Below, in pieces: positions 1,743-26,011 of a stretch of DNA of 33,241 bases. Position 1 is the stretch's first letter. Each line of letters opens with the position of its first letter. Origin of the DNA: Thermoplasmatota archaeon (GTDB lineage: Archaea > Thermoplasmatota > E2 > JACPAO01 > JAHFTW01); assembly GCA_041566495.1 (NCBI GenBank), contig JBFGSX010000001.1, forward strand, positions 1-33,241, read 5' to 3'. A model generated the notes under the pieces. The model ran no database searches. It was not told the DNA's origin and saw only the letters and a program-made list of their open reading frames with translations. The position numbers were made by a program, and so were the translations under genes.

Positions 1743-1772
1743 CTAAGTACGAGCCCGGGTGTGAACAGCTCA

Positions 1773-2192
1773 ATGGCCATCCAAGAAGGTGACACCGTCG
1801 CCGTCCATTACACCGGCAAGCTCCCCGACGGGCAGGTATTCGATACCTCCGAAGGCCGTGAACCCCTGGAGTTCACGGTCGGCGGCGGCCAGCTGATCGC
1901 TGGCTTCGACAAGGCCGTCCGCGGCAAGGAAGTGGGCGACAAGACCACCGTCGAGATCCCCCCGGAAGAGGGCTACGGTCAGGCTGACCCCGAGCGCGTC
2001 CAGACCATCCCCCGCGAGATGCTCGACGCTGACGGCCTCGAAGAGGGCCAGGTCCTTGGCCTGCAGACCCCCGACGGCCAAGCCCTCCAGGCTACCGTCC
2101 AGACCGTCACGGAAGAGACCGTCACGCTCGACTTCAACCACTTCCTGGCTGGCAAGACGCTGACCTTCGACATCGAAGTCGTCCGCGCTTGA
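1773..2192 (+). CDS. FKBP-type peptidyl-prolyl cis-trans isomerase (SlyD-like, with insert-in-flap region)
   Basis: GDTVAVHYTGKLPDGQVFDTS....PLEFTVGGGQLIAGFDKAVRGK...IPPEEGYG and C-terminal LDFNHFLAGKTLTFDIEVV are canonical FKBP/SlyD motifs. ATG at 1773 chosen over the track start at 1641. The CTAAGTA box at 1743-1749 lies about 27 nt upstream. Confidence 0.9.
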   Translation: MAIQEGDTVAVHYTGKLPDGQVFDTSEGREPLEFTVGGGQLIAGFDKAVRGKEVGDKTTVEIPPEEGYGQADPERVQTIPREMLDADGLEEGQVLGLQTPDGQALQATVQTVTEETVTLDFNHFLAGKTLTFDIEVVRA

Positions 2193-2231
2193 AGCCTGGA
2201 AACGTCTAACTCCCCCCGTGCCGATGCAGGC

Positions 2232-3026
2232 ATGATGCGAGCCTCTTCCCTTCTTCTGATCCTTGCCTTGGTCTTGGCTGGTTGCGCAAGCGCACCCCCT
2301 GAACCAGAACCCACGGCCCCCACCCAGGACGTCGACACTGGACCCGACACGGGCGCTATCAGTGGCGTCGTGGTGGACGCCGCGATCACCCCCATCAGTG
2401 GTGCCACGATCACCTTGAAATCGCTGGGCTTGAACCTGACCAGCGCCGCAGACGGGACGTTCGTCATCCAGGACCTGGACCCCGGCGTCTACTTCCTCGA
2501 AGCCTCTGCAGACCAGTTCCTGGCGATCCAGCAGACGGTGACCGTCGAGGCCGGCGCCGTGGCCAAGCCCATCATCACCCTCATCCCGGACCCGTCCCCG
2601 GTGCCCTACCAAGCCACCGTCACGTTCGACGGCCACATGGTCTTCAGCGATATTTACGCGGTCTGGTACGTGACATACTACACGGGCAATTCCACGCTTT
2701 GCCAGTGCATCTTCACGTTCGATGTGGAGTCCGGCTACCAGAACCTCGTCTTGGAAGGAGACTGGACACCCAGCATCGACGTGACGGGAGACCATGAGCT
2801 GTACTGGGAGATCTGGGGCGGGGAAGCTGAAGAAGGCTACGCGGCCACTTACCTAGCCCCTCAGGAATCGACGCGACAGACCGGCGCGGCGTTCGGTGAA
2901 AGCGACGGCGAGATCTGGGTGCAAGTGTCGTCCGGGGCGGTCCCGGACATCGAACAACCGTTCGAAGGGTTCCTGTCGTTCTTCTACGTCGACGCGGCTC
3001 CCGATGGCTGGACCTTCTTTGCGTGA
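2232..3026 (+). CDS. lipoprotein with carboxypeptidase-regulatory-like (CarboxypepD_reg) beta-sandwich domain plus unassigned C-terminal domain
   Basis: Signal peptide with lipobox LILALVLAGC. The segment ISGVVVDAAITPISGATITLKSLGLNLTSAADGTFVIQDLDPGVYFLEASADQF..QTVTVEAG matches the CarboxypepD_reg pattern. Paralog of the next gene. Confidence 0.8.
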   Translation: MMRASSLLLILALVLAGCASAPPEPEPTAPTQDVDTGPDTGAISGVVVDAAITPISGATITLKSLGLNLTSAADGTFVIQDLDPGVYFLEASADQFLAIQQTVTVEAGAVAKPIITLIPDPSPVPYQATVTFDGHMVFSDIYAVWYVTYYTGNSTLCQCIFTFDVESGYQNLVLEGDWTPSIDVTGDHELYWEIWGGEAEEGYAATYLAPQESTRQTGAAFGESDGEIWVQVSSGAVPDIEQPFEGFLSFFYVDAAPDGWTFFA

Positions 3027-3913: not shown

Positions 3914-4699
3914 GTGAAACTGGTCGCGTTCGATCTGGAGACCACGGGGACCGACCCTGACAAGGACAAGATCCTCGAATTCTGCTTCATCGAACTCGAT
4001 GAGGGACTGAACGAGCAGGCCCGCTGGTCGCGTCTGGTCAACCCCGGCATCAAGATCCCTGCCGACAACACCGAGATCCACGGCATCACGGATGAGATGG
4101 TGGCCGACAAGCCCGCCTTCTCCCATTACGCCGTGCGCATCCAGAAGCTCGTCGAAGGGACCGTGCTGATCGCCCACAACCACCGCTTCGATGTGCAGTT
4201 CTTGCACAACGAATTGATCGCCGCTGGCCAGACCGGACTCGCCCCCGACCATCCCTGCATCGACACCCTGCAGATCGAGCGCAACGTCAACTCCCATCGC
4301 CTCGAGGCGTGCTACCGCCGCTACGTCGGCGCACCACTTGACGACGCCCACCGCAGCGAGGCCGACACAGCCGCGATGGTGGACGTCCTGCGCCGCCAAT
4401 TGGAGACCCATGCCGACGTCTTGCCTGAGAAGGTCGACGGCCTGATCGTCGGCAACCTCCACCAGCACTTCAATCCGGATGCGGACGTCCGCAGCTGGCT
4501 CGACCACGGCCACCGCTTCTACAAGGACCGGGACGGCACGGTCCGCTTCGGTTTTGGCAAGCACCGCGACCAGCCCGCCAAGGACCACACGGACTACTTG
4601 CTGTGGATGCGCGACCGCGACTTCCCCGACGACACCAAGCGCGTGGTGCAGGAAGTCCTGGGCCCGTCCTACCAATCCCCCCAACGCACCCTCGGGTGA
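3914..4699 (+). CDS. DEDDh-type 3'-5' exonuclease (DnaQ/epsilon-like) with C-terminal extension
   Basis: ExoI VAFDLETTG, ExoII IAHNHRFDVQFL and ExoIII DAHRSEADTAAMVDVL are present. GTG at 3914 is preferred because the family starts just before the DxE motif and the longer ORF (3782) overlaps the lipoprotein gene. Confidence 0.8.
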   Translation: MKLVAFDLETTGTDPDKDKILEFCFIELDEGLNEQARWSRLVNPGIKIPADNTEIHGITDEMVADKPAFSHYAVRIQKLVEGTVLIAHNHRFDVQFLHNELIAAGQTGLAPDHPCIDTLQIERNVNSHRLEACYRRYVGAPLDDAHRSEADTAAMVDVLRRQLETHADVLPEKVDGLIVGNLHQHFNPDADVRSWLDHGHRFYKDRDGTVRFGFGKHRDQPAKDHTDYLLWMRDRDFPDDTKRVVQEVLGPSYQSPQRTLG

Positions 4700-4703: not shown

Positions 4704-5276
4704 TTGAAGATCCTCTGCGTGGGCAAGAACTACGCCAAGCACGCCGCGGAGATGGGCAGCAGCACGCCGACGTCCCCGATCTGGTTCTGGAAACCTGACT
4801 CGGCCATCGTCGGAGATGGCGAAGCCGTGCACCTGCCGGAGGGCATCGGCGCCGTCCATCATGAAGTGGAACTGGCCGTACGCATCGACCACCGTGGCCG
4901 CCCCGCCGAGATGACCGTGGCCGTGGACATCACTGCCCGCGACCTGCAAGCGGAGGCCAAGAAGAACGGGCACCCCTGGGCCATGGCCAAGGGATTCCAT
5001 TCCTTCTTGCCCCTCGGCCCATGGGTCCCCGCCAAGGACCTCGACGACCAACGCTTGCGCCTCAGCCTTGATGGCGAAGTCAAACAAGATGGGCACACGC
5101 GTGGGATGTCATGGGACGTCCCCACGTTGCTGGACCACGCCTCGAAATGGGTGACCCTTCGCGAGGGGGACGTGCTGTTGACGGGCACCCCCGAGGGCGT
5201 CGGCCCCATGCTGGCGGGCCAGACCATGGTCGCGGAGCTCGTGGGGCACGTCCGCTTGACCAACCCCATCGTCTAG
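4704..5276 (+). CDS. fumarylacetoacetate hydrolase (FAH) family protein
   Basis: (M/L)KILCVGKNYAKHAAEMG....PIWFWKP..A......V.LP......HHEVELAV and GDVLLTGTPEGVGP are hallmark FAH-fold motifs. TTG at 4704 lies 5 nt after the exonuclease stop. The upstream part of track ORF 4479 is out-of-frame overlap with that gene. Confidence 0.85.
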   Translation: MKILCVGKNYAKHAAEMGSSTPTSPIWFWKPDSAIVGDGEAVHLPEGIGAVHHEVELAVRIDHRGRPAEMTVAVDITARDLQAEAKKNGHPWAMAKGFHSFLPLGPWVPAKDLDDQRLRLSLDGEVKQDGHTRGMSWDVPTLLDHASKWVTLREGDVLLTGTPEGVGPMLAGQTMVAELVGHVRLTNPIV

Positions 5277-7303
5277 GCGATGCCCAGCCCTTGGGTGGCT
5301 TGTTGGCCTCCCGGGGTGAGCCGCATACGGACCGAGCGTCCATCCCGTTGTGCAGCGACCAAGCCCGCGTCCTGCAAGCGCTTGAGGTGGTAGGTGGCCG
5401 TGGCAGCAGACAGACCTGCGGCACTTGCCAGGTCCTTGGAGCGAGCACCGGGGGTTTGCCGGAGGGCCGCGAGGATATGCCGGGCACCCTCGGAGCGCAG
5501 CAAAGGCCCCGCGTCGAGGACCGCCCGACACGTGGCGGCGGGGAAGTAGCACGTGTAGCCGGGGCTTTGGCGGGCCCTGATGAGCCCTGCTTGCTGGAGC
5601 TTGTGCAGGTGGTGCCGGATGCGCCCCGGGTTGGCGCCAAGGCGTTCACACAGGGCGCGGAAGTGGAGGCCCGGATCGGCTTCGAGGGCATCCATGATGG
5701 TGGCCCGGGTCGGGTCTTCTAGGAGCTCGTCAGGGCGGAGGCGACTGAACAACGCTAGGCCGGCAGCTTTGAGCGTGGGCCAACCAAGGTAGGCGAGGCC
5801 CAGCAAGGACGCGGCGATGCCCATGCGGGCACCATGGCCTGTGCTTGGCAGGGCCCAGCCCGTGGCGGCATAGCCCGCGACCGTGAGGGGTTCAGCCGCG
5901 GCGGGGGCCGGCATGCTCTGTACAGGTCCGGTGGAGCGCCGTTCGAAGCGTTGGGTCTCTCCTTGACCGTCCAGGGTGATGAGGGTGGCCTCTTCGCCAT
6001 GTGCCAGATCCACGACGGGCAAGCCCGCAGGCCCCCAGCGCAGGTTCTGGGTATGACCCCCGGCGACGCGCACGACGGGGTCTCCGTTCCGGTCGGTGAG
6101 GATCTCGAAGCTCCAGGCATTGGCGCCGGCGTGGCGTTCCTGCGCCGTGACGTGTTGGCCCCAGCGTTCCCATACGGAGGCGACCGTGGGCACGTGGCCC
6201 ACGAGGTGCCTGGGGGGCGCCGCGGGGGCGAGACTGGACGTCTCGATGGGTTGCACGCGGACACCACTCAAGGGCAGGACCTCCCCTTCGTTCTGACTGA
6301 TGCGGACGCTGTATCCTTCTCGCCCATCACTAAGGTGGAGCTCCCAGGAGTGCCTGGTCTCGGAGCCATCGGCTTGCTGCTGGTAGTCGGCGCGGAAGAC
6401 GTACCCCTGGGGGTGGTAGCGGAGCCAGTCCCGCAGTCCTGCGAACGTGTTGTGGCGCACTGCTTCGTCGAACGCTTGGCTGAGCCGGAACGGGTGGTCG
6501 ATGCCCGTGTCTAGCAGACCCCATGTCTCCATCGGGGCCCTGTGGATGGGTGGCGCCACGATGGCGCTGGGTTGGGGTGCTTGGCCTGCTTGGCCATGCT
6601 GGAAGCCGGTGAGGTGGTAGGTGGCCGTGCGGGGTTCCTGAGCGGGGCCCAGGGCGGTGAACTTGTACGTGACGGGGACCGGGATATCGGCGGCGTACCA
6701 CCAATCCATGGTGATGCTGCCCGGCGCGTGGATGTGCTTCAGTCGTAGCCCTTGCTCCACGACCTGCGAGGCCACCAGGGGCCCCGGGGGTAGGCTCACG
6801 CGCATGCCGGGCAGGGTGCACCCGGGCGTGGTGTGAGACGAGCCCGGGCCAGAGAGCAGGCAGTCGCGGTGGGCATCGTATGTGACAGACCGGTGCATCT
6901 CGGCCAGCACGCCTCGGACCTGGTGCTTGACCTGCTCCGTGGCGACGACGTCACCCTCAAGCCACCAGCGGCGCAGTTCTGAGTCGTACCATGTGTCCCC
7001 GGGGTGCAGGGTCGTGCCTTCAGAGTGCCATAGCACCGGATGGGCTTGGATGAGGCGTCCGTCGGAGCCACGGACACCTTCAGGGGGCAGCACCTGGAAC
7101 CGGGGGCCTTGGCTTGGCTCGCCCTCGGTGTGATGCTCGTAGCGCCAGTCCCCTTCGTACGTGACACTGTACGCCGCCACGTCTCCGCCCTGTAGTGCCC
7201 GGGTCTGCACCGACACCTCTTCGATGGGTACGGCCAGGCTGGTGCCGACCAGCAGGATCATCGCGCCCACGGAGACCAGCAGTGCATGCACGACTCGCCG
7301 CAT
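5273..7303 (-). CDS. paralog 1: single-pass membrane protein with large extracytoplasmic domain and C-terminal cytoplasmic tandem winged-helix (ArsR-like) module
   Basis: N-terminal hydrophobic signal/anchor (ALLVSVGAMILLVGTSLA), then about 460 aa non-hydrophobic. TM is MGIAASLLGLAYLGWPTLKAAGLALF (about 5738-5833). The tail (5276-5737) has two wHTH units: DPTRATIMDALEADPGLHFRALCERLGANPGRIRHHLHKLQQAGLI and ARHILAALRQTPGARSKDLASAAGLSAATATYHLKRLQDAGLV. Confidence 0.85.
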   Translation of the reverse strand: MRRVVHALLVSVGAMILLVGTSLAVPIEEVSVQTRALQGGDVAAYSVTYEGDWRYEHHTEGEPSQGPRFQVLPPEGVRGSDGRLIQAHPVLWHSEGTTLHPGDTWYDSELRRWWLEGDVVATEQVKHQVRGVLAEMHRSVTYDAHRDCLLSGPGSSHTTPGCTLPGMRVSLPPGPLVASQVVEQGLRLKHIHAPGSITMDWWYAADIPVPVTYKFTALGPAQEPRTATYHLTGFQHGQAGQAPQPSAIVAPPIHRAPMETWGLLDTGIDHPFRLSQAFDEAVRHNTFAGLRDWLRYHPQGYVFRADYQQQADGSETRHSWELHLSDGREGYSVRISQNEGEVLPLSGVRVQPIETSSLAPAAPPRHLVGHVPTVASVWERWGQHVTAQERHAGANAWSFEILTDRNGDPVVRVAGGHTQNLRWGPAGLPVVDLAHGEEATLITLDGQGETQRFERRSTGPVQSMPAPAAAEPLTVAGYAATGWALPSTGHGARMGIAASLLGLAYLGWPTLKAAGLALFSRLRPDELLEDPTRATIMDALEADPGLHFRALCERLGANPGRIRHHLHKLQQAGLIRARQSPGYTCYFPAATCRAVLDAGPLLRSEGARHILAALRQTPGARSKDLASAAGLSAATATYHLKRLQDAGLVAAQRDGRSVRMRLTPGGQQATQGLGIA

Positions 7304-7321
7304 CAGTGGTTCAGCCGACTC

Positions 7322-7357
7322 AGCGCTATTTAGCAGCGCTAGCCAAGTCGTCGAAAC
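7322..7357 (-). promoter_or_regulatory. promoter of paralog 1: TATA box CTAAATAG (7326-7333) flanked by two AGCGCT palindromes, plus upstream TTCGA box (7351-7355)
   Basis: Only A/T-rich octamer in the 55-bp gap. The C of CTA lies 30 nt upstream of the ATG (7303). TTCGA starts exactly 22 nt upstream of CTA, the same offset as in paralogs 2 and 3. AGCGCT at 7322-7327 and 7335-7340 brackets the TATA box. Confidence 0.5.
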
Positions 7358-7358
7358 C

Positions 7359-9503
7359 TCAGGCCGTCAGGAAGACCCGCCGCCCCACCCGTTCGGCACG
7401 GACGGCGCCCGCTCCTTGCAGTCGCTTCACGTGGTATGCGACGGTGGCAGGACTGAGCCCAAGCCGCTCTGCGACGGCCTTTCCTGTGACGCCTGGCTCC
7501 TTGCGGATCGACGCCAAGACCGCCTGCGCCCCCTTGGAGCGCAGCACCGGAGCGGCCTCCATGCTGTTGCGATCGATGCTCTTCAAGAAGAGGCAAGTGT
7601 AGCCTTCGGTGCTGCGTTTGGTCAGCAGATCATTGCGCAGCAAGTGGTCGATGTGATGGCGCAGGGTACCATTGGCCAAGCCGGTGACGCGACGGAGCTC
7701 GTTGAAGTGGATGCCCGGCTGACCGGCCACCGCATCGACGATCATCTGCCGCGTCGGGTGTTCGAGGAGCTTGGGCTTCTGCAGCCGACTGAACAACGCC
7801 AATGGCGCCGCTTTCAGGGTCGGCCAGAACGCATACAGCAATCCGGCAAGCACGCTGAAGGCACCGATACCAGCCGCCACACCGGCACTGAGCCAGGAAG
7901 CCCCCGCGGGGGTGTCGTCCAAGGGTGGGGCTGTGCTGTCCGCGGCCACCGCATCAGGGACCACGAGACCGGCCCCGCCGAAATCCATCCGAGTGTAGCC
8001 GACGACGTCGAGGCCACTGGCGTCCAGGTAGTCGATGATGGCATCCAAGCCGGTCTCACCGGCCGCGAAGTTCTCGGTGGTGTAGGCCTGCGTGTGCCTT
8101 TCTCCAGCGGTGACCACGTAGCGCGCATCAGAGCATCCCCTGTCGTTGCCCAAGCAGGTCAATCTGTGGCCCCACGAGTTCAGTTCTCCCTGCCCGCCAT
8201 AGTCGATCCAGCGCTGTGCGACGGCCTCGACGGTGGGCGCGGCACGGGGTAGCTGTGATTTGCTGGGCACGTAGGTGCCGCTCCAGCGCACCCAGGGTTC
8301 GACGCTGACCGTGTACTCGGCGACAGCCTCGCGTAGAGCAGCCGGCCAGTCCCGCGCCGCGACGGGCCTCTCCTGGGTCACTTCGACCTGCAACGCTGAA
8401 GGGCCATCGGTGACCGTGAAGGCCCATTCGGTGACGTCGTAATCTGCGGTCGTCCGCAGACTCCGCTCGGAAGCCAGGACGAAGGCGTCGGGGCGTTCCA
8501 TGAAGCGCTGCAGAGAGGCATCCGCCAGGGCGCGGGTCCACGCGGCTTGACCGTCGAAATCGGCTTCGACGGCACCCATGGAGGGGCCCCATGGCTGGAT
8601 GCTCGCCTGTCGCATGGGTGGCATCGGCGCTGCCCGCTGGGGGTCTGGCAAGGGCCGGTCGCCACGGGCGAAGCCCGAAAGGTCGAGGCGGGCGAGCCTG
8701 CCGTCCTCGTGGATTTGTTCCACCCTCAAAGGGACCGGGAGCCCAGGCACATACCAGTGGTGTTGCTCCCCGATCACGACGTGCATCGCCGCCACGCCGG
8801 CAACCTGCTGGACGCCCATGACCTGGACTCGGCGTCCTTCCTCAGCCACGTCCGTGCTGAGCCCATAGCGGAACGAGGAGGCCATGTTGAGGCAGGAATT
8901 GCTGAGGGGGAACGACGTGCCGACTACGAGTTGGCTGCCTGCAAAGACGCGCCCGGCGACGCAGTCGTCCCTGAAGGAGCCGTATTGCTGCCAGTCATAG
9001 GCGATGGATAGGCCTTCTTGGAGCTGGATCCGGGCAGGTTCTTCACCGATCCAACTCGGCGCGCCTCCCCATACTCCCGACGCACCATAGGACAAGTCTT
9101 CATCACCCGCAAAACGCCGGTACTCTTGCCCGTCGACAAGGTCCCACGTGTCGCTGAACAGATCGAAGTCCCACTCCGTCTTGACGACCTGCAGGACCGC
9201 CGCCTCGAGCAACGCACCACGCTCGTCGAAGACCTGCTCTTGCTGCCACGAGAAGCGCATGTAGGTCCAAGGCGTCCGCCAATCGGGTTCACTGTCGCTG
9301 ATCCCTTGGTAGCCTGATTGCCACGGCCCAGTGAGGGTGATCTTGTAGGCGCCACGGTCGCCGATGCGCGGCTCGGCCACAGTCATCGACGCAGCGCGTT
9401 CGTCGCCCGTGGACGCCATGCCGGTGCCAAGGCCGACGCTCACCAAGAGCATGATGAGAAGGGCGATCGGAAGCCGGCCGACAGGAAACCGCATCGAGGC
9501 CAT
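7359..9503 (-). CDS. paralog 2: single-pass membrane protein with large extracytoplasmic domain and C-terminal tandem winged-helix module
   Basis: Same architecture as paralog 1. Signal/anchor is LPIALLIMLLVSVGLG and TM is LSAGVAAGIGAFSVLAGLLYAFWPTLKAAPLALFSRL. The tail (7362-7781) has HPTRQMIVDAVAGQPGIHFNELRRVTGLANGTLRHHIDHLLRNDLL and AQAVLASIRKEPGVTGKAVAERLGLSPATVAYHVKRLQGAGAV. Confidence 0.85.
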   Translation of the reverse strand: MASMRFPVGRLPIALLIMLLVSVGLGTGMASTGDERAASMTVAEPRIGDRGAYKITLTGPWQSGYQGISDSEPDWRTPWTYMRFSWQQEQVFDERGALLEAAVLQVVKTEWDFDLFSDTWDLVDGQEYRRFAGDEDLSYGASGVWGGAPSWIGEEPARIQLQEGLSIAYDWQQYGSFRDDCVAGRVFAGSQLVVGTSFPLSNSCLNMASSFRYGLSTDVAEEGRRVQVMGVQQVAGVAAMHVVIGEQHHWYVPGLPVPLRVEQIHEDGRLARLDLSGFARGDRPLPDPQRAAPMPPMRQASIQPWGPSMGAVEADFDGQAAWTRALADASLQRFMERPDAFVLASERSLRTTADYDVTEWAFTVTDGPSALQVEVTQERPVAARDWPAALREAVAEYTVSVEPWVRWSGTYVPSKSQLPRAAPTVEAVAQRWIDYGGQGELNSWGHRLTCLGNDRGCSDARYVVTAGERHTQAYTTENFAAGETGLDAIIDYLDASGLDVVGYTRMDFGGAGLVVPDAVAADSTAPPLDDTPAGASWLSAGVAAGIGAFSVLAGLLYAFWPTLKAAPLALFSRLQKPKLLEHPTRQMIVDAVAGQPGIHFNELRRVTGLANGTLRHHIDHLLRNDLLTKRSTEGYTCLFLKSIDRNSMEAAPVLRSKGAQAVLASIRKEPGVTGKAVAERLGLSPATVAYHVKRLQGAGAVRAERVGRRVFLTA

Positions 9504-9525
9504 ACATCCCTGACCCCTAATGAGG

Positions 9526-9586
9526 GTTATAGGACGCCTGGAGCGACCTTCGAATCCTCGAAGAAGAGGGTAGAGTGCGTGTCGAA
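9526..9586 (-). promoter_or_regulatory. promoter of paralog 2: TATA box CCTATAACC (9525-9533) plus three TCGAA boxes (9550-9554, 9558-9562, 9582-9586)
   Basis: CTA lies 29 nt upstream of the ATG (9503). The proximal TTCGA lies 22 nt upstream of CTA. The first and third boxes (both TCGAATC on the plus strand) are 32 nt apart. Confidence 0.5.
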
Positions 9587-9604
9587 TCGTGGTAGGAGCC
9601 CGCT

Positions 9605-11005
9605 TCAGTGCTGGGTCTGCTTGCGGGGTTCGAGCGCGGCGTCCACTTCTTCCTTGCTGAGGCCAGACATCTCGTAGGCCAGGTCGCGGACCGTGCGGCC
9701 GGTCTTGTAGGAGGTCTTGGCGATCGTGGCGGCCTTGTCATACCCGATGAGCGGGTTGAGGGCGGTGGCCATGCTCATGGACTGCTCCACGTAACTCTCC
9801 GCCTTCTCCTTGTTCGCGGTGGTGCCGGCCAGGCAGTTGTCCACGAAGACGGTGCTGATGTTGCTCAGCAAGCGAATGGATTCCAGCATGTTGTGGGCCA
9901 TCATGGGGAGCATGACGTTGAGGTCGAGTTGGCCCCATTGGCCACCGATGCGGACGGCGGTGTTGTTGCCGGTGACGTGGGCGCCCACTTGGACGACGGC
10001 TTCGCAGATGACCGGGTTGACCTTGCCGGGCATGATGCTGCTGCCGGGTTGGATAGCAGGGAGTTGCAGTTCACCTAGGCCGCATGCAGGGCCGCTGGCC
10101 ATGAGGCGGATGTCGTTGGCGATCTTCATCAAGGACGCGGCGACCGTGTCGAGGGCACCTGCGAGGAAGACGTAGGCATCGCGAGCGGCTTGGGCTTCGA
10201 AGTGGTTCTCGGCTTCCTTGAATTCGAGGTTGGTGGCTTGGTAGAGGTACTCGGCGACTTTGGCGCCGAATTCAGGGTGGGCGTTGAGGCCCGTGCCGAG
10301 GGCACTGCCACCTTGGGCGAGTTCCAGGAGACCAGGCATGGCGGATTCGATGCGCTCGATGCCAAGTTGGATCTGACGGGCGTAGCCACTGAATTCTTGG
10401 CCCAGGCGGATCGGCACCGCGTCCATGAGGTGGGTGCGGCCGATCTTGACCACATCGTCGAACTCGGTGGCCTTCTCCGTCAGGCAGTCGCGCAGGTACT
10501 GCAAGGCGGGGATGAGGGTGTACTTGAGTTCCTGGGCGGCGGCCACGTGCATGGTGGTGGGGATGATGTCGTTGCTGCTCTGGCCACGGTTGACGTCATC
10601 GTTGGGGTGGACGTTCTCGCCGAGGATGCCGCTGGCGATGTTGGCCACGACCTCGTTGGCGTTCATGTTGGTGGAGGTGCCGCTGCCGGTCTGGAAGACG
10701 TCGACGGGGAACTGCTCCCCGTGTTCGCCTTCGAAGATGGAAAACGCGGCTTCCGCGATGGCATCGGCCTTGGCCTCAGGCAGTTCGCCCAGGTCCTTGT
10801 TGGCCAGGGCGCAGGCCCACTTGACGAGGCCCACGGCCTTGACGAACTCGGCGGGCATGCCGTGGCCGGCGACGGGGAAGTTGAGGATCGCCCTCTGGGT
10901 GCTCGCGGCCCACTTGGCGTCGATCGGGACCTCCATTTCACCCATGGAGTCGGCTTCAATGCGGCTGTCGGGTCCGGCCATGGTCCCGAGGGGGGCGTCG
11001 CTCAT
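9605..11005 (-). CDS. fumC: class II fumarate hydratase
   Basis: 466 aa with the fumarate-lyase signature GSSIMPGKVNP, plus SSNDIIPTTMHV and TGSGTSTNMNANEV. CGTAAATC box (11028-11035) lies about 26 nt upstream of the ATG. Confidence 0.95.
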   Translation of the reverse strand: MSDAPLGTMAGPDSRIEADSMGEMEVPIDAKWAASTQRAILNFPVAGHGMPAEFVKAVGLVKWACALANKDLGELPEAKADAIAEAAFSIFEGEHGEQFPVDVFQTGSGTSTNMNANEVVANIASGILGENVHPNDDVNRGQSSNDIIPTTMHVAAAQELKYTLIPALQYLRDCLTEKATEFDDVVKIGRTHLMDAVPIRLGQEFSGYARQIQLGIERIESAMPGLLELAQGGSALGTGLNAHPEFGAKVAEYLYQATNLEFKEAENHFEAQAARDAYVFLAGALDTVAASLMKIANDIRLMASGPACGLGELQLPAIQPGSSIMPGKVNPVICEAVVQVGAHVTGNNTAVRIGGQWGQLDLNVMLPMMAHNMLESIRLLSNISTVFVDNCLAGTTANKEKAESYVEQSMSMATALNPLIGYDKAATIAKTSYKTGRTVRDLAYEMSGLSKEEVDAALEPRKQTQH

Positions 11006-11027
11006 CGGGTGCGCGAGCCTGGCCTGG

Positions 11028-11035
11028 GATTTACG
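11028..11035 (-). promoter_or_regulatory. TATA-like box of fumC (CGTAAATC in gene orientation)
   Basis: Isolated A/T-rich element about 26 nt upstream of the fumC ATG (11005) in otherwise GC-rich DNA. Confidence 0.4.
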
Positions 11036-11074
11036 GGTGACGGCGCTTCATTTCAACATCATCCCAGGAAGACC

Positions 11075-11082
11075 TGTAAAGG
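11075..11082 (+). promoter_or_regulatory. TATA-like box of lipoprotein gene 11103-12179 (TGTAAAGG)
   Basis: About 25 nt upstream of ATG 11103. Confidence 0.35.
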
Positions 11083-11102
11083 AGAAGCCTGGTGGGCCGT
11101 GC

Positions 11103-12179
11103 ATGCGTTGGCTCGTCGTGGCCCTCATCGTCTTGGCTGGCTGTGCCGAGGCTCCCGTTCCGGTCCTCGAAGGACCCGACCCCACCGTGCCCATCTATGG
11201 AGGCATCAACCCCGAGTCCTTGCACTTGCTAGGCTCCGACAACAACGAGACCGGAGACGCTCGGGTCCTAGTGGGGCGCTGTGCCAGCCAGCAGAACGTC
11301 TTCGCATACACGTTCCCTGCCCGCTTGGACAATGCATCCGCAAGTAGGGTCGTGCTCACATTCTCCCATGACGTCCCCAACGCCACATCGTTCCTCATCG
11401 CCTCTTTTGCGGATTCCCCTGGAGGCCTGATTCCGACCCGCTTGGTGGCTGGAGGCGCCCACGCATCGGAGGCCCCCCCTTCCATGGGCCAAGTAGAGTG
11501 GTATGAGGCGATGCCAAGGTCGTTCACCATACCCGTTGGACCGGATGGCATGGTGCGCATCGCCATCGCATGCGAAGGCGAGGGTGTCGTCAATTACGTC
11601 ATCGACGAGCCCACGAACCCGGAGCGGCCGGACTACCTGGAGCCCGTGGTGGCGTCCGGTTTCGACGCGTTCCTTGCCGACGGTTACTCCCTCCTCTACG
11701 TTCCGCTTCCTCCAAACACGCGCATCACGGGACCCGCGTGGACGTTGGTGGGAGACGTCATCGTCGACTACTCTCAGACAGCCCCCAATGGTGTTCGGGT
11801 CGGCGAGACCCACATTCAATGGGGTTCGTCCAGGGCGGGCTGGACCACGACGATGTGCGGCCACGATGGTTGGGCAGAGACCGGCACATGGGCGTACGAA
11901 GCAGACTTCGGGCACGGCCCCGAAAGCGCGGGGGGGCTCATCGTTGACAGCATCGCGACGCTGGGATTGAGCCAGATGTTGTTGTTCGGAGACATGGTGC
12001 TCTCCCACTCGGGCAGCGGCGGGGAGGCTCCATGGTTCCGGTTCTCCGTGGAGCACCAAGCGTCGTCGGAGGTAGCGTGGTCCACGTGGTGCGTGGGGAC
12101 CCACTTGGGCGCGCCGCTCGACGTCTTGTTCGCCGCCGCAGGGGCACGTGAGTGGGACATGCCGGAACCGTTCCTTTAG
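11103..12179 (+). CDS. hypothetical lipoprotein
   Basis: MRWLVVALIVLAGCAE is a signal peptide with lipobox. No family recognised. ATG at 11103 lies about 25 nt after TGTAAAGG (11075-11082). The upstream part of track ORF 10425 is antisense to fumC. Confidence 0.7.
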   Translation: MRWLVVALIVLAGCAEAPVPVLEGPDPTVPIYGGINPESLHLLGSDNNETGDARVLVGRCASQQNVFAYTFPARLDNASASRVVLTFSHDVPNATSFLIASFADSPGGLIPTRLVAGGAHASEAPPSMGQVEWYEAMPRSFTIPVGPDGMVRIAIACEGEGVVNYVIDEPTNPERPDYLEPVVASGFDAFLADGYSLLYVPLPPNTRITGPAWTLVGDVIVDYSQTAPNGVRVGETHIQWGSSRAGWTTTMCGHDGWAETGTWAYEADFGHGPESAGGLIVDSIATLGLSQMLLFGDMVLSHSGSGGEAPWFRFSVEHQASSEVAWSTWCVGTHLGAPLDVLFAAAGAREWDMPEPFL

Positions 12180-14257
12180 GCGGCAGCCGGTCCAAGTTGC
12201 AGGATGGTGCCGTTGCCAGCCTTCTGGACCCGCACGACCCCGGCGTCGCTGAGGCGCTTGAGGTGGTAGTGCATGGTGCTGGGACTGATGCCGATCTCAT
12301 TGCGGACATCCACCGCCAGTGAGCCAGGGTGCGCTCGGATGTGCGCGATGATCTGTTGGGCGGCGGCGCTCTTGAGGACCGGGGCCGCTGCCAGAACGTG
12401 GCGGTCGGTCGCCTTGGGGAAGTAGCAGGTGTATCCTGCACTTCTGTGGACGGTGAGGAGCCCGCCTTCGTGCAACTTGTGAAGGTGATGCTCCACGGCA
12501 CCTTGTCCGATGCCGAGGCTGCGCACCAGTGCTTGCTGGTGGATGCCAGGTTCTGCTTCGATGTGGTCCATGAGACGGCGGCGTTGAGGGTTCTCCAGCA
12601 ACTCCGGGGTCTTGATGCGGCTGAACAGCCCCATGAAGGAGGTCTTCAGAAGGGGGTGGAGGAAGTACACCAGGCCGGCGATGAGAGCCCCCGCGCCGGC
12701 CACGGCGACCTCACGAGCGCTCAGCATCGGTCCAGGGTCGAACCGGGATAGGCTCATGGCGGAGGCTTGGACAGGGGGCGCCGGAGGGGTGCTGCCTTCG
12801 GCGTACCAATCCTGAGTGTGTTCCACGTAACGGGTCAGGATGAAGGAACCTGCACGGGTGTCCCATTGGACATGACTGGCCTGGTATTGATCGGTGTAAT
12901 CGTTGACCACGTAAGCCACGGTCCTGTGGTCCCGCGTGTATGCGTCGTGCCCGGCGGTCACTTGCACGATGGCTTCATCGCAGGTCTCCCCGCAGCGGAT
13001 CCAGGTCCGGACGGCATTTCCGGGAGTGTGTTGGTAGTCTGGGCCGCGGTGTTTCTCCCAGATGGCCAGCATAGAGGCCAAGGTGGGCATGCGCGCCGGC
13101 GCGGCCTGGGGCTTCGGGTGGGAGTAGCCGCGGGCATCCTCGATGCCGCGGTCGCTGAAGTCCCAAGTACCTGGGCGGTCGAGGGGCGTGACCAGGTCGT
13201 TGTCTTGGGTGATGAAGCGCGCGTGGAGGCTGATCCATTCGTCACCGTCGGTCACGTCGAAGTTCCAGTAGTGCCAGACGTCCCCTCGGTCCACATCGTG
13301 GAAGTGTCCGGAACTCAGGCCCCGGACGTAGGCATCCGGGTGCGTGGCCAAGTAGTCCCGTAGAGTCTCGTAGGACGGATCATCCAACGCAGCTTGCCAT
13401 GCGTCTTGCGGGGACACAGGCAGGTCTACTCCGGTGCTGTCGATACCCCAGGCCGGCATCGGTGCTGTTCGGAGGTGCGGGACACCCATGGCGCGGGGCG
13501 TGTCTGGTTGGAGCCGCACGTCTGCATTGCCCCGGGCATAGGCCTCCAGTGTCCAGACCGCTTCCGTGGCGCCCGCTTCGACGATGCGCACGGGGTATGG
13601 GATGCCACTCTGATACCAGAACGTCATGGCAAGACCGCCGCGGTGGGCCTCCACCACCATCGTGTTTGTCTCTTCGATGTGTCCGGCGGTGACGTAGTGG
13701 CCGATGGCATCCATGGCACGGACCGCACCCCAGCAGGAGACTCCCGGGAACGTCTGCTTGGCCACGGCGACGGTCGTGCCTTGCCATGGTGCGACGAGTC
13801 CGCAAGGGATGGCGCCGACGTGGGGTTCGAAGCGGAGGTAACGCTGCTGCATGTCCATTTGGGTGCCGTCTTGGACGGTGGTAGACGATACCAGGGCAGC
13901 AGACGCAACAGCGTCCAGGCTTCCAGGGGCCAGGTACCAGACCAGGTCAGTGGTGTGCTTGCCGTTGGCTGTGTTCTCGACCACGTGGACGGCGTTGTAC
14001 CATGCGCGAGTGCCATCGGCCAGCAGGACCTGTTCGTCCGGTAGCCAGGACAAGTTGTACTGGCCCATGCGGCTCGGGGAGCCACCCGTGATGGTGTAGC
14101 GGGCTTCGTCGCCGGCCTTCGGGGCGGCGAACGAGAACGAGCCCTCGGGCTCGGCCGCCTCGGCGTTGCTGAGCCCCACGGCGCCGATGGTGCCACCGGC
14201 AAGGAGGAACACAGTCAGGGTGAAGGCAAGGTGACGGGGTCGGGTCAACAAGTGCAT
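12176..14257 (-). CDS. paralog 3: single-pass membrane protein with large extracytoplasmic domain and C-terminal tandem winged-helix module
   Basis: Same architecture as paralogs 1 and 2. Anchor is LAFTLTVFLLAGGTIGAVGL and TM is VAVAGAGALIAGLVYFLHPLLKTSFMGLFSRI. The tail (12179-12613) has NPQRRRLMDHIEAEPGIHQQALVRSLGIGQGAVEHHLHKLHEGGLL and AQQIIAHIRAHPGSLAVDVRNEIGISPSTMHYHLKRLSDAGVV. ATG at 14257 is preferred to GTG at 14272 because the TATA box starts only 13 nt from 14272. Confidence 0.85.
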   Translation of the reverse strand: MHLLTRPRHLAFTLTVFLLAGGTIGAVGLSNAEAAEPEGSFSFAAPKAGDEARYTITGGSPSRMGQYNLSWLPDEQVLLADGTRAWYNAVHVVENTANGKHTTDLVWYLAPGSLDAVASAALVSSTTVQDGTQMDMQQRYLRFEPHVGAIPCGLVAPWQGTTVAVAKQTFPGVSCWGAVRAMDAIGHYVTAGHIEETNTMVVEAHRGGLAMTFWYQSGIPYPVRIVEAGATEAVWTLEAYARGNADVRLQPDTPRAMGVPHLRTAPMPAWGIDSTGVDLPVSPQDAWQAALDDPSYETLRDYLATHPDAYVRGLSSGHFHDVDRGDVWHYWNFDVTDGDEWISLHARFITQDNDLVTPLDRPGTWDFSDRGIEDARGYSHPKPQAAPARMPTLASMLAIWEKHRGPDYQHTPGNAVRTWIRCGETCDEAIVQVTAGHDAYTRDHRTVAYVVNDYTDQYQASHVQWDTRAGSFILTRYVEHTQDWYAEGSTPPAPPVQASAMSLSRFDPGPMLSAREVAVAGAGALIAGLVYFLHPLLKTSFMGLFSRIKTPELLENPQRRRLMDHIEAEPGIHQQALVRSLGIGQGAVEHHLHKLHEGGLLTVHRSAGYTCYFPKATDRHVLAAAPVLKSAAAQQIIAHIRAHPGSLAVDVRNEIGISPSTMHYHLKRLSDAGVVRVQKAGNGTILQLGPAAA

Positions 14258-14277
14258 GGCCAGGACTCCCACGCAGC

Positions 14278-14373
14278 CAATATAGGGCGCGCGGGGCGAT
14301 CATCGAAAACCCGCCCACCCCCCTGGGCGGATCTTCGAAAACCGAGGCGCCCATCGGACCAAGGCTCGAAAAG
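14278..14373 (-). promoter_or_regulatory. promoter of paralog 3: TATA box CCTATATTG (14278-14286) plus three TCGAAAA(C/G) boxes (14303-14310, 14335-14342, 14366-14373)
   Basis: CTA lies 28 nt upstream of ATG 14257. The proximal TTCGA lies 22 nt upstream of CTA. Boxes are spaced 32 and 31 nt. The first two sit in near-identical 14-mers, GATC(A/T)TCGAAAACC. Confidence 0.5.
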
Positions 14374-14385
14374 CCTTGCTGGGAC

Positions 14386-17456: not shown

Positions 17457-17615
17457 GGCGCCGCCATCGCCTCCACCGCATAACGACTAGGGCCCGCAAA
17501 AGCGCGGGGAAACCCTCCCCGGGCGCTGTTTCGCCGGATGCCTACCCAACACTCATCCTTGCACCTCGGGGTCAGGGGTCAAGCTGCCCAGTGCAGCCCA
17601 CCCACGGTGGACCCC

Positions 17616-18086
17616 ATGCCCGACATCATCCAACACCATCATTTCGATGCCCCGCCCCACGCGATCTTCAAGGCCCTCACAGACGCCAAGACCCTGTGTA
17701 CGTGGTGGACGACGTCCGCCACCAGCGACCCCAACATCGGCGGCGAATTCCAGTACGAGTTCCACCACACGGCCGAGGCCTTGGCTCAGGGCAAGGCGGA
17801 CATGGTGCAGGAGGGCAAGTACGTGGAGTGCGACGTGAACACGATCCAATACCCGTGGGCGGTAGGCCCCCGCCAGACCACGGTCAGGTTCGTGCTTAAC
17901 GTCGAGAACGGTGGCACGGACCTGAAGCTGGTCCACAGTGACGTGCCCGACGACGAACCGACCCTCCAGGCGCTAGGCGAGGGGTGGACGTTCTTCCTGG
18001 GCAATCTGGCCAATGTCTTGGCGGGCAAGCCCGATGGCCGACCGGAAGCGGGGCTGCTGGTCAGCACCCCAGGCGTCAGCGTCTAA
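17616..18086 (+). CDS. SRPBCC/AHSA1 (Aha1-like START fold) domain protein
   Basis: MPDIIQHHHFDAPPHAIFKALTDAKTLCTWWTT......GGEFQYEF and ..GGTDLKLVHSDVP......L..GW..FL.NL are typical of the AHSA1 family. ATG at 17616 chosen over track start 17538. Confidence 0.8.
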   Translation: MPDIIQHHHFDAPPHAIFKALTDAKTLCTWWTTSATSDPNIGGEFQYEFHHTAEALAQGKADMVQEGKYVECDVNTIQYPWAVGPRQTTVRFVLNVENGGTDLKLVHSDVPDDEPTLQALGEGWTFFLGNLANVLAGKPDGRPEAGLLVSTPGVSV

Positions 18087-18466
18087 GCGTCGGCGAGGTT
18101 CTCGAGGGCTTCCCAAGCGAGGTCGACTTCGTCGACGCCGATGTAGATGGAGCCCCCGTCTTGGCCCTTGGCGGCACCGAAGGAGACGTGGATGTTGACC
18201 TTCTTGTCGCCGAGGGCCTTGGCGACCTGGGCCAGTTCGCCGGGCTCGTTCGGGAGTTCGATCTCAATGACCTCTTCCTGGGTGAACGTGATGCCTGCGG
18301 CCTTGAGGGCGCTACCGGTGGCTTCGTCGTCGCCGGTGACGATGCGCAGACCGCCAGGGCCGGCGCTGAATGCGTCGATGTTGATGCCCGCCTTGTGGAG
18401 GGCTTGGGCGACATCACCCAGGGTGCCCGGGCGGTCTTCGACATCCAGCGTGTACAGCATGGCCAT
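18083..18466 (-). CDS. tandem ACT-domain protein
   Basis: MAMLYTLDVEDRPGTLGDVAQALHKAGINIDAF and a second unit IEIELPNEPGELAQVAKALGDKKVNIHVSF are two ACT-type beta-alpha-beta-beta-alpha-beta units. Confidence 0.75.
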   Translation of the reverse strand: MAMLYTLDVEDRPGTLGDVAQALHKAGINIDAFSAGPGGLRIVTGDDEATGSALKAAGITFTQEEVIEIELPNEPGELAQVAKALGDKKVNIHVSFGAAKGQDGGSIYIGVDEVDLAWEALENLADA

Positions 18467-18504
18467 GCATCCTGGTTGTGGATGGGGGTTTTTGGCTTGT
18501 TTGG

Positions 18505-19314
18505 TCACGGGGAGCGAGGCACCGGGTCCGGGAACAAGGGCTGAGCCGGAGCCCTGGTGCAGCGTTTGGCCAGTGTCAGATCGCCAAGCGCCGCTGCGAT
18601 GCGGGGCATGGAGTCCACGGCGTTGCCCTCGAAGCGGTTGGTGACGATGGCGAAGGTCTCGACGGCGGGATCGCTGCGGGAGCGCATCTCCAGGACGTCA
18701 TCCAAGCGGTCTCGTTGGGTGACCCAGCGGCCTTTGCGCCTGACGAGGTTGCCCACGAAACGGATGTAGCGGAACGAGCCAGTGTCCCAGGCCGGGGCCA
18801 ACGCCTTGTCGTAAGTGCCCCAGCATAGGGCGACCCCGTGCCGGCGCAGGAGATCTTCGGTCTCTGGGGTGAACCAGGCGGCATTGCGAAACTCGATGGC
18901 CAGCCCCTCCGTCGGGGCTATTTTGAGCAGCGATTCCAGCCAATCGATGTGCTCTGGTCCGAAGGCACGGGGGAACTGGGCCAACGTAGGACCCAAGCGC
19001 CGGGCGTTACGAAGCGGCGTCAGAGTATCCAAAGCCCCCCGAGCGGCATCCAGTGCCGCGTCGTCGTAGCCTTCGTGAGTGGCCGCCTTGCTGAGCTTGG
19101 GGAGGAACCGGAAGCCCTCAGGGGTCTGTGCGATCCAATCTTCGAGCGTGCCAGCCTCAGGCTCCTGGTGATACAGGACGTCTGCCTCCACCACATCGAA
19201 GACCATGCTGTAGCGAGGCAGCCATTCCCGGTGCAGCGTGCGCAGGGGGTACAAGATGTGGTCGAAGTGGCTGTTGCTCCACGCAGCGAGGCCGACGTGA
19301 AGATGCGGTTGCAC
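18505..19314 (-). CDS. DUF72 (YecE-like TIM-barrel) family protein
   Basis: HVGLAAWSNSHFDHILYP........WLPRYSMVFDVVEADVLYHQEP....EDWIAQTPEGFRFLPKL....TH is the characteristic DUF72 N-terminal pattern. The GTG start directly abuts the TAG stop of the upstream GGCT-like gene. Confidence 0.85.
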   Translation of the reverse strand: MQPHLHVGLAAWSNSHFDHILYPLRTLHREWLPRYSMVFDVVEADVLYHQEPEAGTLEDWIAQTPEGFRFLPKLSKAATHEGYDDAALDAARGALDTLTPLRNARRLGPTLAQFPRAFGPEHIDWLESLLKIAPTEGLAIEFRNAAWFTPETEDLLRRHGVALCWGTYDKALAPAWDTGSFRYIRFVGNLVRRKGRWVTQRDRLDDVLEMRSRSDPAVETFAIVTNRFEGNAVDSMPRIAAALGDLTLAKRCTRAPAQPLFPDPVPRSP

Positions 19315-19842: not shown

Positions 19843-19850
19843 CTATAAAT
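19843..19850 (+). promoter_or_regulatory. TATA box of icd (CTATAAAT)
   Basis: Best TATA-like octamer in the window. It lies 20-29 nt before TTG 19870 and ATG 19879. It may also serve the divergent GGCT-DUF72-ACT unit. Confidence 0.55.
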
Positions 19851-19878
19851 CGGACCACCTGAGCCGCGGTTGAAGCAC

Positions 19879-21165
19879 ATGGCCTGGAATTTCACTGTCC
19901 CCGAAGACGGCGCCGAGATCAAGGTGCAAGAAGACGGCACCCTCGTCGTCCCGAACAACCCTGTTATCCCTTTCATCGAAGGCGACGGCACCGGCCCCGA
20001 CATCTGGGCGGCCAGCCAGCGCGTCCTCGATGCCGCTGTGGCCATGGCCTACGGCGGCGACCGCAAGATCGCCTGGATGGAAGTCCTTGCTGGCGAGAAG
20101 GCGTTCAACGAGACCGGCGAGTGGCTCCCGGAAGCCACCCTCGAAGGCGTCCGCCAATACAAGGTCGCCATCAAGGGCCCCCTCACGACGCCCGTCGGCG
20201 GCGGTATCCGCAGCCTGAACGTCGCTCTGCGGCAGATCCTCGACCTGTACGTCTGCCTGCGCCCCGTGAAGTACTACGCTGGTGTCCCGACGCCGGTCCA
20301 CGGCCCCGAGCGCCACGACTGGGTCATCTTCCGTGAGAACAGCGAAGACATCTACGCAGGTGTCGAGTTCGCTGCCGGGACGCCCGAGAACAAGAAGCTC
20401 ATGACGTTCCTCCGCGACGAAATGGGCGTCTCCAAGATCCGCTTCCCCGAGACCTCCGGCCTCGGCATCAAGCCCATCAGCAAGGAAGGCACGGACCGCC
20501 TCGTGCGCGCCGCCATCCAGTACGCCATCGAGCACGACCGTGACAGCGTCACCCTCGTGCACAAGGGCAACATCATGAAGTTCACCGAGGGTGGCTTCCG
20601 CGACTGGGGTTACCAGCTTGCCAAGGAAGAGTTCGGCGCGGTCGAACTCGACGGCGGCCCCTGGTGCACCTTCAAGAACCCGAACACGGGCAAGACGATC
20701 ACGGTCAAGGACGTCATCGCTGACGCCATGCTCCAGCAGATCCTGACCCGCCCGAGCGAATACGGTGTCGTCGCCACGATGAACCTGAACGGCGACTACC
20801 TCAGTGACGCCCTGGCTGCCTGCGTGGGCGGCATCGGCATCGCCCCCGGCGCCAACATCAACTACGTGACCGGCCACGCCATCTTCGAGGCGACCCACGG
20901 CACCGCGCCCAAGTACGCGGGTCTTGACAAGGTCAACCCTGGCTCGGTCATCCTGAGCGGCGTCATGATGCTGCAGCACCTCGGCTGGAACGAAGCCGCT
21001 GACTTGATCCAGAAGGGTCTGGCCGAAGCCATCACGCAGAAGCGCGTCACGTACGACTTCGAGCGCATGATGGACGGCGCCACCCTCCTGAAGTGCAGCG
21101 AGTTCGGCGACGCGATCATCGAGAACATGGGCGGCGTCGAAGCGGCCCAGCCCAACGCCGCTTAG
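19879..21165 (+). CDS. icd: NADP-dependent isocitrate dehydrogenase
   Basis: [34 protein letters not shown] and the signature [13 protein letters not shown] are present. Length and order match prokaryotic homodimeric ICDH. TTG at 19870 is an alternative start. CTATAAAT box at 19843-19850. Confidence 0.95.
21129..21161 (+). repeat. direct repeat copy 1 (last 11 codons of icd)
   Basis: GGGCGGCGTCGAAGCGGCCCAGCCCAACGCCGC is followed by T-TAG. An identical 33-mer recurs at 21222-21254. Confidence 0.9.
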
Positions 21166-21221
21166 GCGTGGCGAAGGCCGCAAGGCGCTGACTTCGTGCA
21201 GCCCTGCCAAGGGCAGCACTG

Positions 21222-26008: not shown

Positions 26009-26011
26009 GCG

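Follow-up and report, generated by a model that had tools for sequence, protein, structure and literature searches.

Candidate Membrane-Anchored Transcription Regulators with a Tandem Winged-Helix Tail and a Shared Promoter Box in a Thermoplasmatota Archaeon

A 33,241-nucleotide stretch of DNA from a Thermoplasmatota archaeon (GenBank assembly GCA_041566495.1, contig JBFGSX010000001.1, positions 1 to 33,241; here called the window) contains three related genes, A, B, and C, whose predicted products join a large domain outside the cell to a pair of winged helices inside it. The question raised by this locus is whether such proteins sense the surroundings of the cell and act directly on promoters. 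To our knowledge, beyond a few two-component systems and regulators of the ArnR type, very little has been learned about the sensing of external conditions by archaea. The family to which A, B, and C belong offers a concrete case with three defined parts, namely, a modeled ectodomain without a match in Pfam, PDB, or BFVD, a conserved juxtamembrane segment, and an output module with a candidate operator. Judged from sequence, the three proteins are probably environmental sensors that regulate their own genes. We consider it reasonably likely that they are type I (N-out, C-in) single-pass receptors that double as transcription factors, with a winged-helix pseudo-dimer that would bind the promoter box described below and control the receptors' own genes.

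Architecture of the three paralogs

Inspection of the open reading frames (ORFs) of the window confirmed all three genes on the minus strand, A at 5273-7303 (676 amino acids [aa]), B at 7359-9503 (714 aa), and C at 12176-14257 (693 aa from the ATG at 14257). For C, this ATG is a likelier start than the alternative GTG (12176-14272; 698 aa), because a TATA-like box lies 27 nt upstream of it, as in A (-29) and B (-28), and because it agrees with the public gene call of 693 aa (P0003). A preliminary description made from the nucleotide sequence had assigned one architecture to the three proteins, and this held: an N-terminal signal/anchor, an ectodomain of about 460 to 500 aa, one transmembrane (TM) helix, a juxtamembrane string, and two ArsR-type winged helices. 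All parts are encoded on the minus strand. In A, the signal/anchor (aa 1-24; 7232-7303) is followed by the ectodomain (aa 25-490; 5834-7231), the TM helix GARMGIAASLLGLAYLGW (aa 491-508; 5780-5833), the juxtamembrane string PTLKAAGLALFSRLR (5735-5779), and the tandem winged helix-turn-helix (wHTH) tail with the stop codon (5273-5734). The corresponding parts of B are at aa 1-32 (9408-9503), aa 33-538 (7890-9407), and aa 539-559 (7827-7889), followed by the juxtamembrane string WPTLKAAPLALFSRLQ (7779-7826) and the tandem wHTH tail with stop (7359-7778). In C, the signal/anchor (14156-14257), ectodomain (12710-14155), and TM helix (12656-12709) precede the juxtamembrane string PLLKTSFMGLFSRIK (12611-12655) and the tandem wHTH tail with stop (12176-12610).

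A four-way alignment with one close database relative recovered the juxtamembrane strings, both wHTH signatures, and the ectodomain landmarks that had been reported for the three proteins. Two of the proposed patterns were too narrow: APM..WG does not describe B, which has ASIQPWG, and G.[IL].HH does not describe C, which has G.V.HH. Every pairwise BLASTP comparison of the ectodomains alone was significant (A-B, 6e-6; A-C, 1e-19; B-C, 2e-11), so the paralogy of A, B, and C does not depend on the tails alone. Family-wide, conservation along the protein is uneven, with mean pairwise identities of 53% for the juxtamembrane segment, 44% for wHTH1, 40% for wHTH2, and 38% for the TM helix, and of 30% and 24% for two α/β modules and 22% for a β-rich domain of the ectodomain. 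As had been proposed, the tail (40 to 44% in the winged helices) is better conserved than the ectodomain modules (22 to 30%). The best-conserved stretch of the whole protein is the juxtamembrane motif W-P-x-L-K-x-G-x-x-G-L-F-S-R, which is separated from the first winged helix by about 10 to 15 residues.

The predicted cytoplasmic tail is a known tandem winged-helix module

Matches to Pfam and NCBIfam were confined to the C-terminal ~150 aa, where each tail consists of two wHTH stretches in Pfam. The first, wHTH1, has its best match to PF24266 (HTH_HVO_0163_N; bit scores, 65.7 for A, 72.3 for B, and 68.4 for C; cutoff, 31), and wHTH2 matches HTH_24, HTH_20, and MarR_2. When 60 relatives were scanned one by one, 58 to 60 of them carried the same combination of PF24266 with HTH_24, HTH_20, or MarR_2. 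A search of PDB sequences with a tail profile returned 5duk, YgaV, ArsR, PH1932, the ArsR-family regulator 8qkf, and NolR, all ArsR-family or putative DNA-binding proteins. Within the chain, wHTH1 and wHTH2 are duplicates of one another (hhalign E = 3e-18). The structural check suggested for the tails at the outset, AlphaFold modeling followed by Foldseek, gave two winged helices as predicted, and in the AlphaFold2 model single winged helices superpose on ArsR, CzrA, SmtB, and CadC in the PDB at 1.1 to 1.8 Å. Recognition-helix residues are near-invariant across paralogs in an alignment of 83 family sequences (H616, H617, T687, H691, and R694; B numbering is used throughout). The tail is an already known Pfam module of the HVO_0163 type, an archaeal unit that occurs as a soluble protein, with a minimal membrane anchor, or behind a large ectodomain.

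Across the family with large ectodomains, conservation reaches 94% or more at each of four wHTH1 residues: H599 (in PGIH), H616 and H617 (the HH of the recognition helix), and C637 (in GYTCYF of the wing). In the soluble and the short two-TM relatives, the sequence is YH instead, and the Cys of GYTCYF has no counterpart. This set of three histidines and one cysteine could be a cytoplasmic metal or redox site, and we know of no described ArsR metal site to which it corresponds.

A promoter box shared by the family genes

The upstream regions of family genes contain a direct repeat of a box of the approximate sequence GGATTCGAnGAtC, or GG(A/T)TTCGAnGAtC. Its cores lie at -51 to -53 and -83 to -85 from the ATG, 31 to 33 nt apart and in a single orientation, with a third copy at -114 for C. 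The proximal box starts about 24 nt upstream of a TATA-like box, itself at -27 to -29. For A, the box AGGTTTCGACGACT (7346-7359, minus strand; core, -53) overlaps the last base of the B stop codon and is followed by the TATA-like box TAAATAG (7326-7332, minus strand; -29 from the ATG), which is conserved upstream of the A orthologue in a related metagenome-assembled genome (MAG; locus L002). For B, the proximal box AGGATTCGAAGGTC (9545-9558, minus strand; core, -52) and the distal box ACGATTCGACACGC (9577-9590, minus strand; core, -84; 32 nt from the proximal one) precede the TATA-like box TATAACC (9525-9531, minus strand; -28). For C, the proximal box GGTTTTCGATGATC (14298-14311; core, -51), a second box GGTTTTCGAAGATC (14330-14343; core, -83), and a weaker third box GCTTTTCGAGCCTT (14361-14374; core, -114) lie upstream of TATATTG (14278-14284; -27 from the ATG at 14257), all on the minus strand.

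Unbiased counting of 6-mers ranked GATTCG and ATTCGA first, at about 50-fold over background. Matches to the pattern [AT]TTCGA number 17 in 1,583 nt of intergenic DNA upstream of family genes, 1 in 7,011 nt of other noncoding DNA, and 24 in 70.7 kb of coding sequence. The lone match in other noncoding DNA falls within an uncalled ORF (17538-18086, plus strand), that is, in coding sequence, and a general promoter element was rejected as an explanation of the box, there being no true intergenic occurrence outside the family promoters in these ~7 kb. The window was scanned with a position weight matrix (PWM) built solely from two distant loci, L005 and L007; the proximal and distal boxes of B were the best and second-best matches in this out-of-sample scan of the whole window. 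Three loci fetched afterwards, likewise out of sample, had the box at the same place and in the same orientation in four of four family genes, and with a stricter pattern four of the six matches in the window fell within the three paralog promoters. The best nonpromoter match in the window, AGAATTCGAGGATC (3970-3983, minus strand; PWM score, 16.5), lies antisense within an RNase T-like gene and is probably due to chance.

TATA-like boxes stand 27 to 29 nt upstream of the ATG in all three paralogs and in most relatives at other loci. This spacing points to mRNAs without a leader and to one promoter per paralog, even though the genes stand in tandem. Archaeal sites placed just upstream of the B recognition element (BRE) and TATA box are typically activator sites, such as those of Ptr2 and EarA, and positive autoregulation is therefore plausible for the family. 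With this activator-like position and the near-invariance of the recognition-helix residues across paralogs, we infer that autoregulation by the family's own tails is the most economical reading of the box. The preliminary description had supposed different inputs feeding a common DNA-binding output, and a family-specific promoter box is consistent with such an output without proving it.

Membrane topology

Hydropathy gave an N-terminal hydrophobic segment in A, B, and C and a clear TM helix before the tail in B and C; the TM helix of A is rich in Gly, Ala, and Ser and scores lower. The N-terminal hydrophobic segment is found in 141 of 145 full-length relatives and the TM helix before the tail in 132, and none has another strongly hydrophobic stretch. 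In the same set, the net charge of the n-region is about +3.6, and that of the 15 residues after the TM helix is +1.6, compared with -0.2 before it. The ectodomain Cys count is even in 79 of 83 members. These signals agree with the orientation proposed earlier, in which the ectodomain lies outside and the wHTH tail inside. The N-terminal segment can serve as an anchor, because short relatives keep it as their first TM helix.

The ectodomain

The ectodomain landmarks noted earlier in three proteins extend through the family: in the 83 sequences, D49, C181, and C204 never vary, and conservation is at least 90% at G48, Y53, P258, and W432. A second Cys pair, C450 with C457, is present in 62 of the 83 members, and the invariant pair and this common one probably form disulfides, to judge from sequence and the AlphaFold2 models. 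AlphaFold2 models built with the 83-sequence family alignment were of high confidence for the ectodomain of A (predicted local distance difference test [pLDDT] score, 89.7; predicted template modeling [pTM] score, 0.88) and for full-length B (pLDDT, 87.3). In the model of B, an N-terminal helix (residues 11-32) is followed by a β-rich domain (39-301), α/β module 1 (318-403), α/β module 2 (421-509), a low-confidence linker (510-539), the TM helix (540-558), a short juxtamembrane helix (560-565), wHTH1 (576-640), and wHTH2 (645-713). The two α/β modules are not an internal repeat (hhalign probability, 0.9%).

The earlier statement that the ectodomain can be assigned to no named family stands. 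The ectodomains of A, B, and C had no match in Pfam, NCBIfam, PADLOC, or PDB sequences, Pfam found HTH families only and nothing on the ectodomain in the 60 relatives scanned, and an ectodomain profile had zero matches among PDB sequences at E values of up to 10. Foldseek searches with the undivided multidomain model gave no convincing counterpart in PDB or BFVD (template modeling [TM] score, ≤0.26; root mean square deviation [RMSD], 15 to 30 Å). Matches to porin, lipocalin, and TbpB structures were rejected (TM score, ≤0.15; RMSD, >20 Å). As modeled, the ectodomain is one without a detectable match in PDB or BFVD rather than a demonstrated new fold. It is a candidate for a new Pfam family and possibly a new sensor fold.

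Family size, age, and genomic locus

A profile of the ectodomain alone, used in an exhaustive search, returned 452 clusters (representatives at 50% identity) at E ≤ 1e-3 and 365 at E ≤ 1e-10, nearly all of 670 to 820 aa. The tail is present in 146 of the 151 top clusters, and the remaining five are fragments. The few cluster members with source names are automatically annotated "ArsR family regulator," and IMG and NCBI labels read ArsR or wHTH. A word-indexed protein search recovered nothing beyond the query, one orthologue, and some short or incomplete proteins that match the tail. In a scan of genome contigs, the sole species-representative genome with the family was one Thermoplasmatota MAG, and a metagenome scan with a profile from a six-sequence alignment added one further full-length member, at locus L008. 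The architecture is thus not confined to the window but is that of a large family, of about 450 clusters and with one to five copies per locus.

The related MAG carries orthologues of A, B, and C at 59 to 62% identity (A, 61%) in the gene order of the window: 4HBT, C, a lipobox protein, fumC, B, A, FAA hydrolase, and RNase T. On more distant contigs, the frame of 4HBT, fumC, FAA hydrolase, and RNase T genes is kept with one, two, four, or five paralogs. Identity between paralogs is 23 to 32%, and some duplications are lineage specific. The preliminary description had taken the genes to be locally amplified to three copies. Rather, the copies are ancient, because paralog identity is low (26 to 30%), all three have syntenic orthologues in another MAG, and arrays of one to five copies occupy the same locus in other lineages. 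Between the window and the MAG orthologues, the ratio of nonsynonymous to synonymous substitution rates (dN/dS) is about 0.27 to 0.29 for the ectodomain and 0.10 to 0.17 for the tail (for A, about 0.29 and 0.10), values that are rough because dS is near saturation; as estimated from these alignments, both parts are under purifying selection. The multiparalog arrays suggest that inputs diversify in specificity while the output stays constant, a point of relevance to the growth of regulatory networks in uncultured archaea.

The metagenome scan also found soluble tandem-wHTH proteins of about 170 aa, and Pfam confirmed PF24266 with a second wHTH in full-length, two-TM, and soluble relatives alike. 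On marine metagenome contigs of 40 to 56% GC (L013 to L045), proteins of 275 to 300 aa are abundant that consist of a first TM helix, an acidic low-complexity loop of about 60 aa, a second TM helix, and a tandem wHTH with the signature EANPGIHF. These short proteins are probably minimal membrane-anchored output modules from marine Thermoplasmatota.

Comparison with known systems

The likeness to ToxR and CadC drawn in the preliminary description is apt in part. Like the bacterial ToxR, TcpP, and CadC, the proteins would link sensor to promoter directly, without a phosphorelay, and a single-pass membrane-tethered factor with an extracytoplasmic sensor is common to both. There is no homology in any part, however, and the polarity is opposite, ToxR and CadC having an N-terminal cytoplasmic wHTH of the OmpR/PhoB type and a C-terminal periplasmic domain; Pfam gave no Trans_reg_C match in A, B, or C, and the host here is an archaeon with TATA/BRE promoters. 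In ArnR and ArnR1, the HTH is N-terminal, a HAMP-like region follows, the TM helices are C-terminal, and there is no large ectodomain. The domain order of A, B, and C is the opposite, Pfam found no HAMP match in them, and no homology of ArnR or ArnR1 to the ectodomain was detected. What is shared is that ArnR and ArnR1 of Sulfolobus acidocaldarius, which act on promoters of surface structure genes, are likewise archaeal, membrane-bound, one-component regulators (PMC6396743).

Each winged helix resembles ArsR/SmtB proteins by sequence (NF033788, HTH_5, and HTH_20) as well as by structure, although B and C score under the NF033788 cutoff. The ArsR/SmtB metalloregulators, in contrast, form soluble homodimers of about 100 aa in which each chain has a single wHTH, and their metal sites are defined (an α3 CxC or α5), whereas A, B, and C are membrane anchored, have 676 to 714 aa and two wHTHs per chain, and show no CxC motif in their alignment. 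Membership in ScpB was rejected as well, there being no ScpB family among the Pfam matches and only poor Foldseek superpositions (RMSD, 10 to 11 Å; TM score, ~0.3). The family is thus not ToxR/CadC, ArnR, ScpB, or canonical ArsR/SmtB. Closest in output are the soluble HVO_0163-type proteins of haloarchaea and other archaea (~170 aa), which have the same module of PF24266 and a second wHTH (31% identity over 82% of the tail for a Haloplanus protein) but no signal, ectodomain, TM helix, or WPxLK..LFSR motif, and for which literature searches found no functional characterization. The short two-TM proteins share the hydrophobic N terminus, an outside segment, a TM helix, the tandem wHTH, and the EANPGIHF signature but have only the ~60-aa acidic loop outside and lack the WPxLK..LFSR motif and the HH...C residues.

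By its predicted features, the family falls under the archaeal transmembrane transcription regulators, an already recognized class (as defined by Demey et al. in 2023; PMC10269533). As that class is described, its members are one-component proteins with at least one TM helix and a DNA-binding domain, single-pass forms predominate, and archaea have about four per genome. A, B, and C have a TM helix predicted by hydropathy (and modeled by AlphaFold2 in B) and a DNA-binding domain of two wHTHs above the Pfam cutoffs. Set against the class, the family has a C-terminal DNA-binding part made of two tandem ArsR-type winged helices, a large unannotated ectodomain, multiparalog arrays, and a shared promoter box, and it is neither named nor described in the passages of PMC10269533 that were searched. 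The ectodomain family, the WPxLK..LFSR motif, the multiparalog locus, and the promoter box were not met with in the literature searched, and all four appear to be undescribed.

Proposed mechanism and alternative explanations

In the mechanism that we propose, the signal/anchor would export the three-module ectodomain, whose variable β-rich domain and two α/β modules are predicted from sequence and from the AlphaFold2 models. The β-rich domain would bind a cue from outside the cell or from the envelope, differing from one paralog to the next. Together, the TM helix and the highly conserved W-P-x-L-K-x-G-x-x-G-L-F-S-R segment would pass the signal to the HVO_0163-type tandem ArsR-like wHTH, which has the fold and family of a DNA-binding module and would act as an intramolecular pseudo-dimer. 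Its target would be the repeated box GG(A/T)TTCGAnGAtC, which in the leaderless family genes is found at about -53 and -85, ahead of the BRE/TATA. With recognition helices conserved from paralog to paralog, several sensors would then share a single type of operator. Several points weigh against this proposal. The topology was derived from hydropathy and charge rules. B and C fall under the NCBIfam cutoff for ArsR/SmtB (NF033788; cutoff, 55 bits) at 40.3 and 50.0 bits, with A above it at 73.4. ScpB and ESCRT-II are among the top Foldseek matches, and tandem winged helices also occur in proteins outside transcription. No clear box was seen for the A orthologue of locus L002 by the strict pattern, for the second gene of L005, for genes 1, 3, 4, and 5 of L007, or for L008; the sites of the window and L002 share descent, so that a Fisher test overstates their independence; and the box could be bound by another factor that coregulates the paralogs.

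Regulated proteolysis in the manner of Notch or of anti-sigma factors would be a variant of the receptor reading rather than its opposite. Ligand binding or loss would lead to cleavage in the TM helix or juxtamembrane segment and free the ~150-aa tail as a soluble regulator. Helix-destabilizing residues near the membrane are typical of substrates of intramembrane proteases such as site-2 protease and rhomboid, and the hyperconserved juxtamembrane string contains Pro and Gly; the soluble proteins of ~170 aa with the same two-wHTH module indicate, moreover, that the module can work untethered. We nevertheless think such release improbable: no protease gene is linked to the loci compared, the juxtamembrane conservation is explained equally well by signal transmission or dimerization, and the short two-TM relatives retain the tail without the WPxLK..LFSR motif. 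A broader version, to which we give little credence, is that these are lineage-specific Thermoplasmatota receptor arrays of one to five paralogs, with ectodomains unmatched in PDB or BFVD and a common operator specificity, acting as combinatorial environmental sensors, whose tails, cleaved at the juxtamembrane segment or within the membrane, would activate GGATTCGA-box promoters; if true, it would be an archaeal analogue of Notch- or SREBP-type signaling.

A departure from regulation altogether would be a role of A, B, and C in the envelope or at the cell surface, in which their tandem winged helices engage another protein or hold DNA without sequence specificity, as in ScpB/kleisin or ESCRT-II. 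They might, for example, anchor the chromosome or a cytoskeletal complex to a surface structure, and the several paralogs would together make up a hetero-oligomeric surface assembly. Such a role would suit paralogs that always adjoin one another and an ectodomain without a recognizable ligand-binding fold, and the top whole-tail Foldseek matches are indeed tandem winged-helix proteins (ScpB [4i98, 3w6j, and 6juv], ESCRT-II [3cuq], RPC34/62, and SelB). These superpose poorly, however (RMSD, 9 to 12 Å; TM score, ≤0.3), whereas single winged helices fit ArsR-family repressors at 1.1 to 1.8 Å; by sequence profile, both winged helices belong with the ArsR, MarR, or HVO_0163 families of DNA-binding proteins and not with ScpB, the recognition-helix residues are near-invariant, and the box is family specific and fixed in position. 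We regard this explanation as quite improbable. Least credible in our judgment is a sensor of lipids or envelope stress of the LolA/RseB (MucB) type, with an open β-barrel and a small C-terminal domain in the ectodomain. MucB (6in8; Foldseek probability, 0.90) was the sole high-probability match of the ectodomain, and other weak matches (AttH, Fsa2/Phm7, AimA, and TbpB) are lipocalin- or LolA-like open barrels, but the 6in8 alignment (TM score, 0.18 by query and 0.26 by target; RMSD, ~15.5 Å; E = 2e-3) is at most a lead from a multidomain query searched undivided, and no Pfam match to MucB_RseB or LolA was found in 60 members.

Other features of the window

As noted in the preliminary description, fumC and the gene of a protein with a lipobox sit between the paralog copies. 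The latter (11103-12179, plus strand; 358 aa; lipobox-like LAGC; N terminus, MRWLVVALIVLAGC) has no match in Pfam or PADLOC and is convergent with C, with an overlap of 3 nt. Its orthologue in the related MAG is 48% identical and in the same place (L002, 3382-4452), and it is absent from the more distant loci. A link to defense systems was rejected, as PADLOC matches were limited to the wHTH parts (Csa3/CARF HTH), and scans of the window for tRNAs and Rfam families were empty. Two ORFs below the 200-aa filter lie at 17538-18086 (plus strand) and 18083-18508 (minus strand), the first of which probably starts at an internal MPDIIQHHHF. Adjacent DEAD-box helicase genes at 23148-24692 and 24689-26008 (minus strand) overlap by 4 nt, and the first has a C-terminal DbpA RNA-binding domain. 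Five ORFs of 222 to 535 aa have no Pfam match: 1770-2795 (minus), 19843-21450 (minus), 25808-27019 (plus), 27417-28841 (minus), and 31756-32424 (plus). With these five and the nearby CarboxypepD_reg and BNR-like proteins, the window is rich in uncharacterized proteins that are probably secreted or at the surface.

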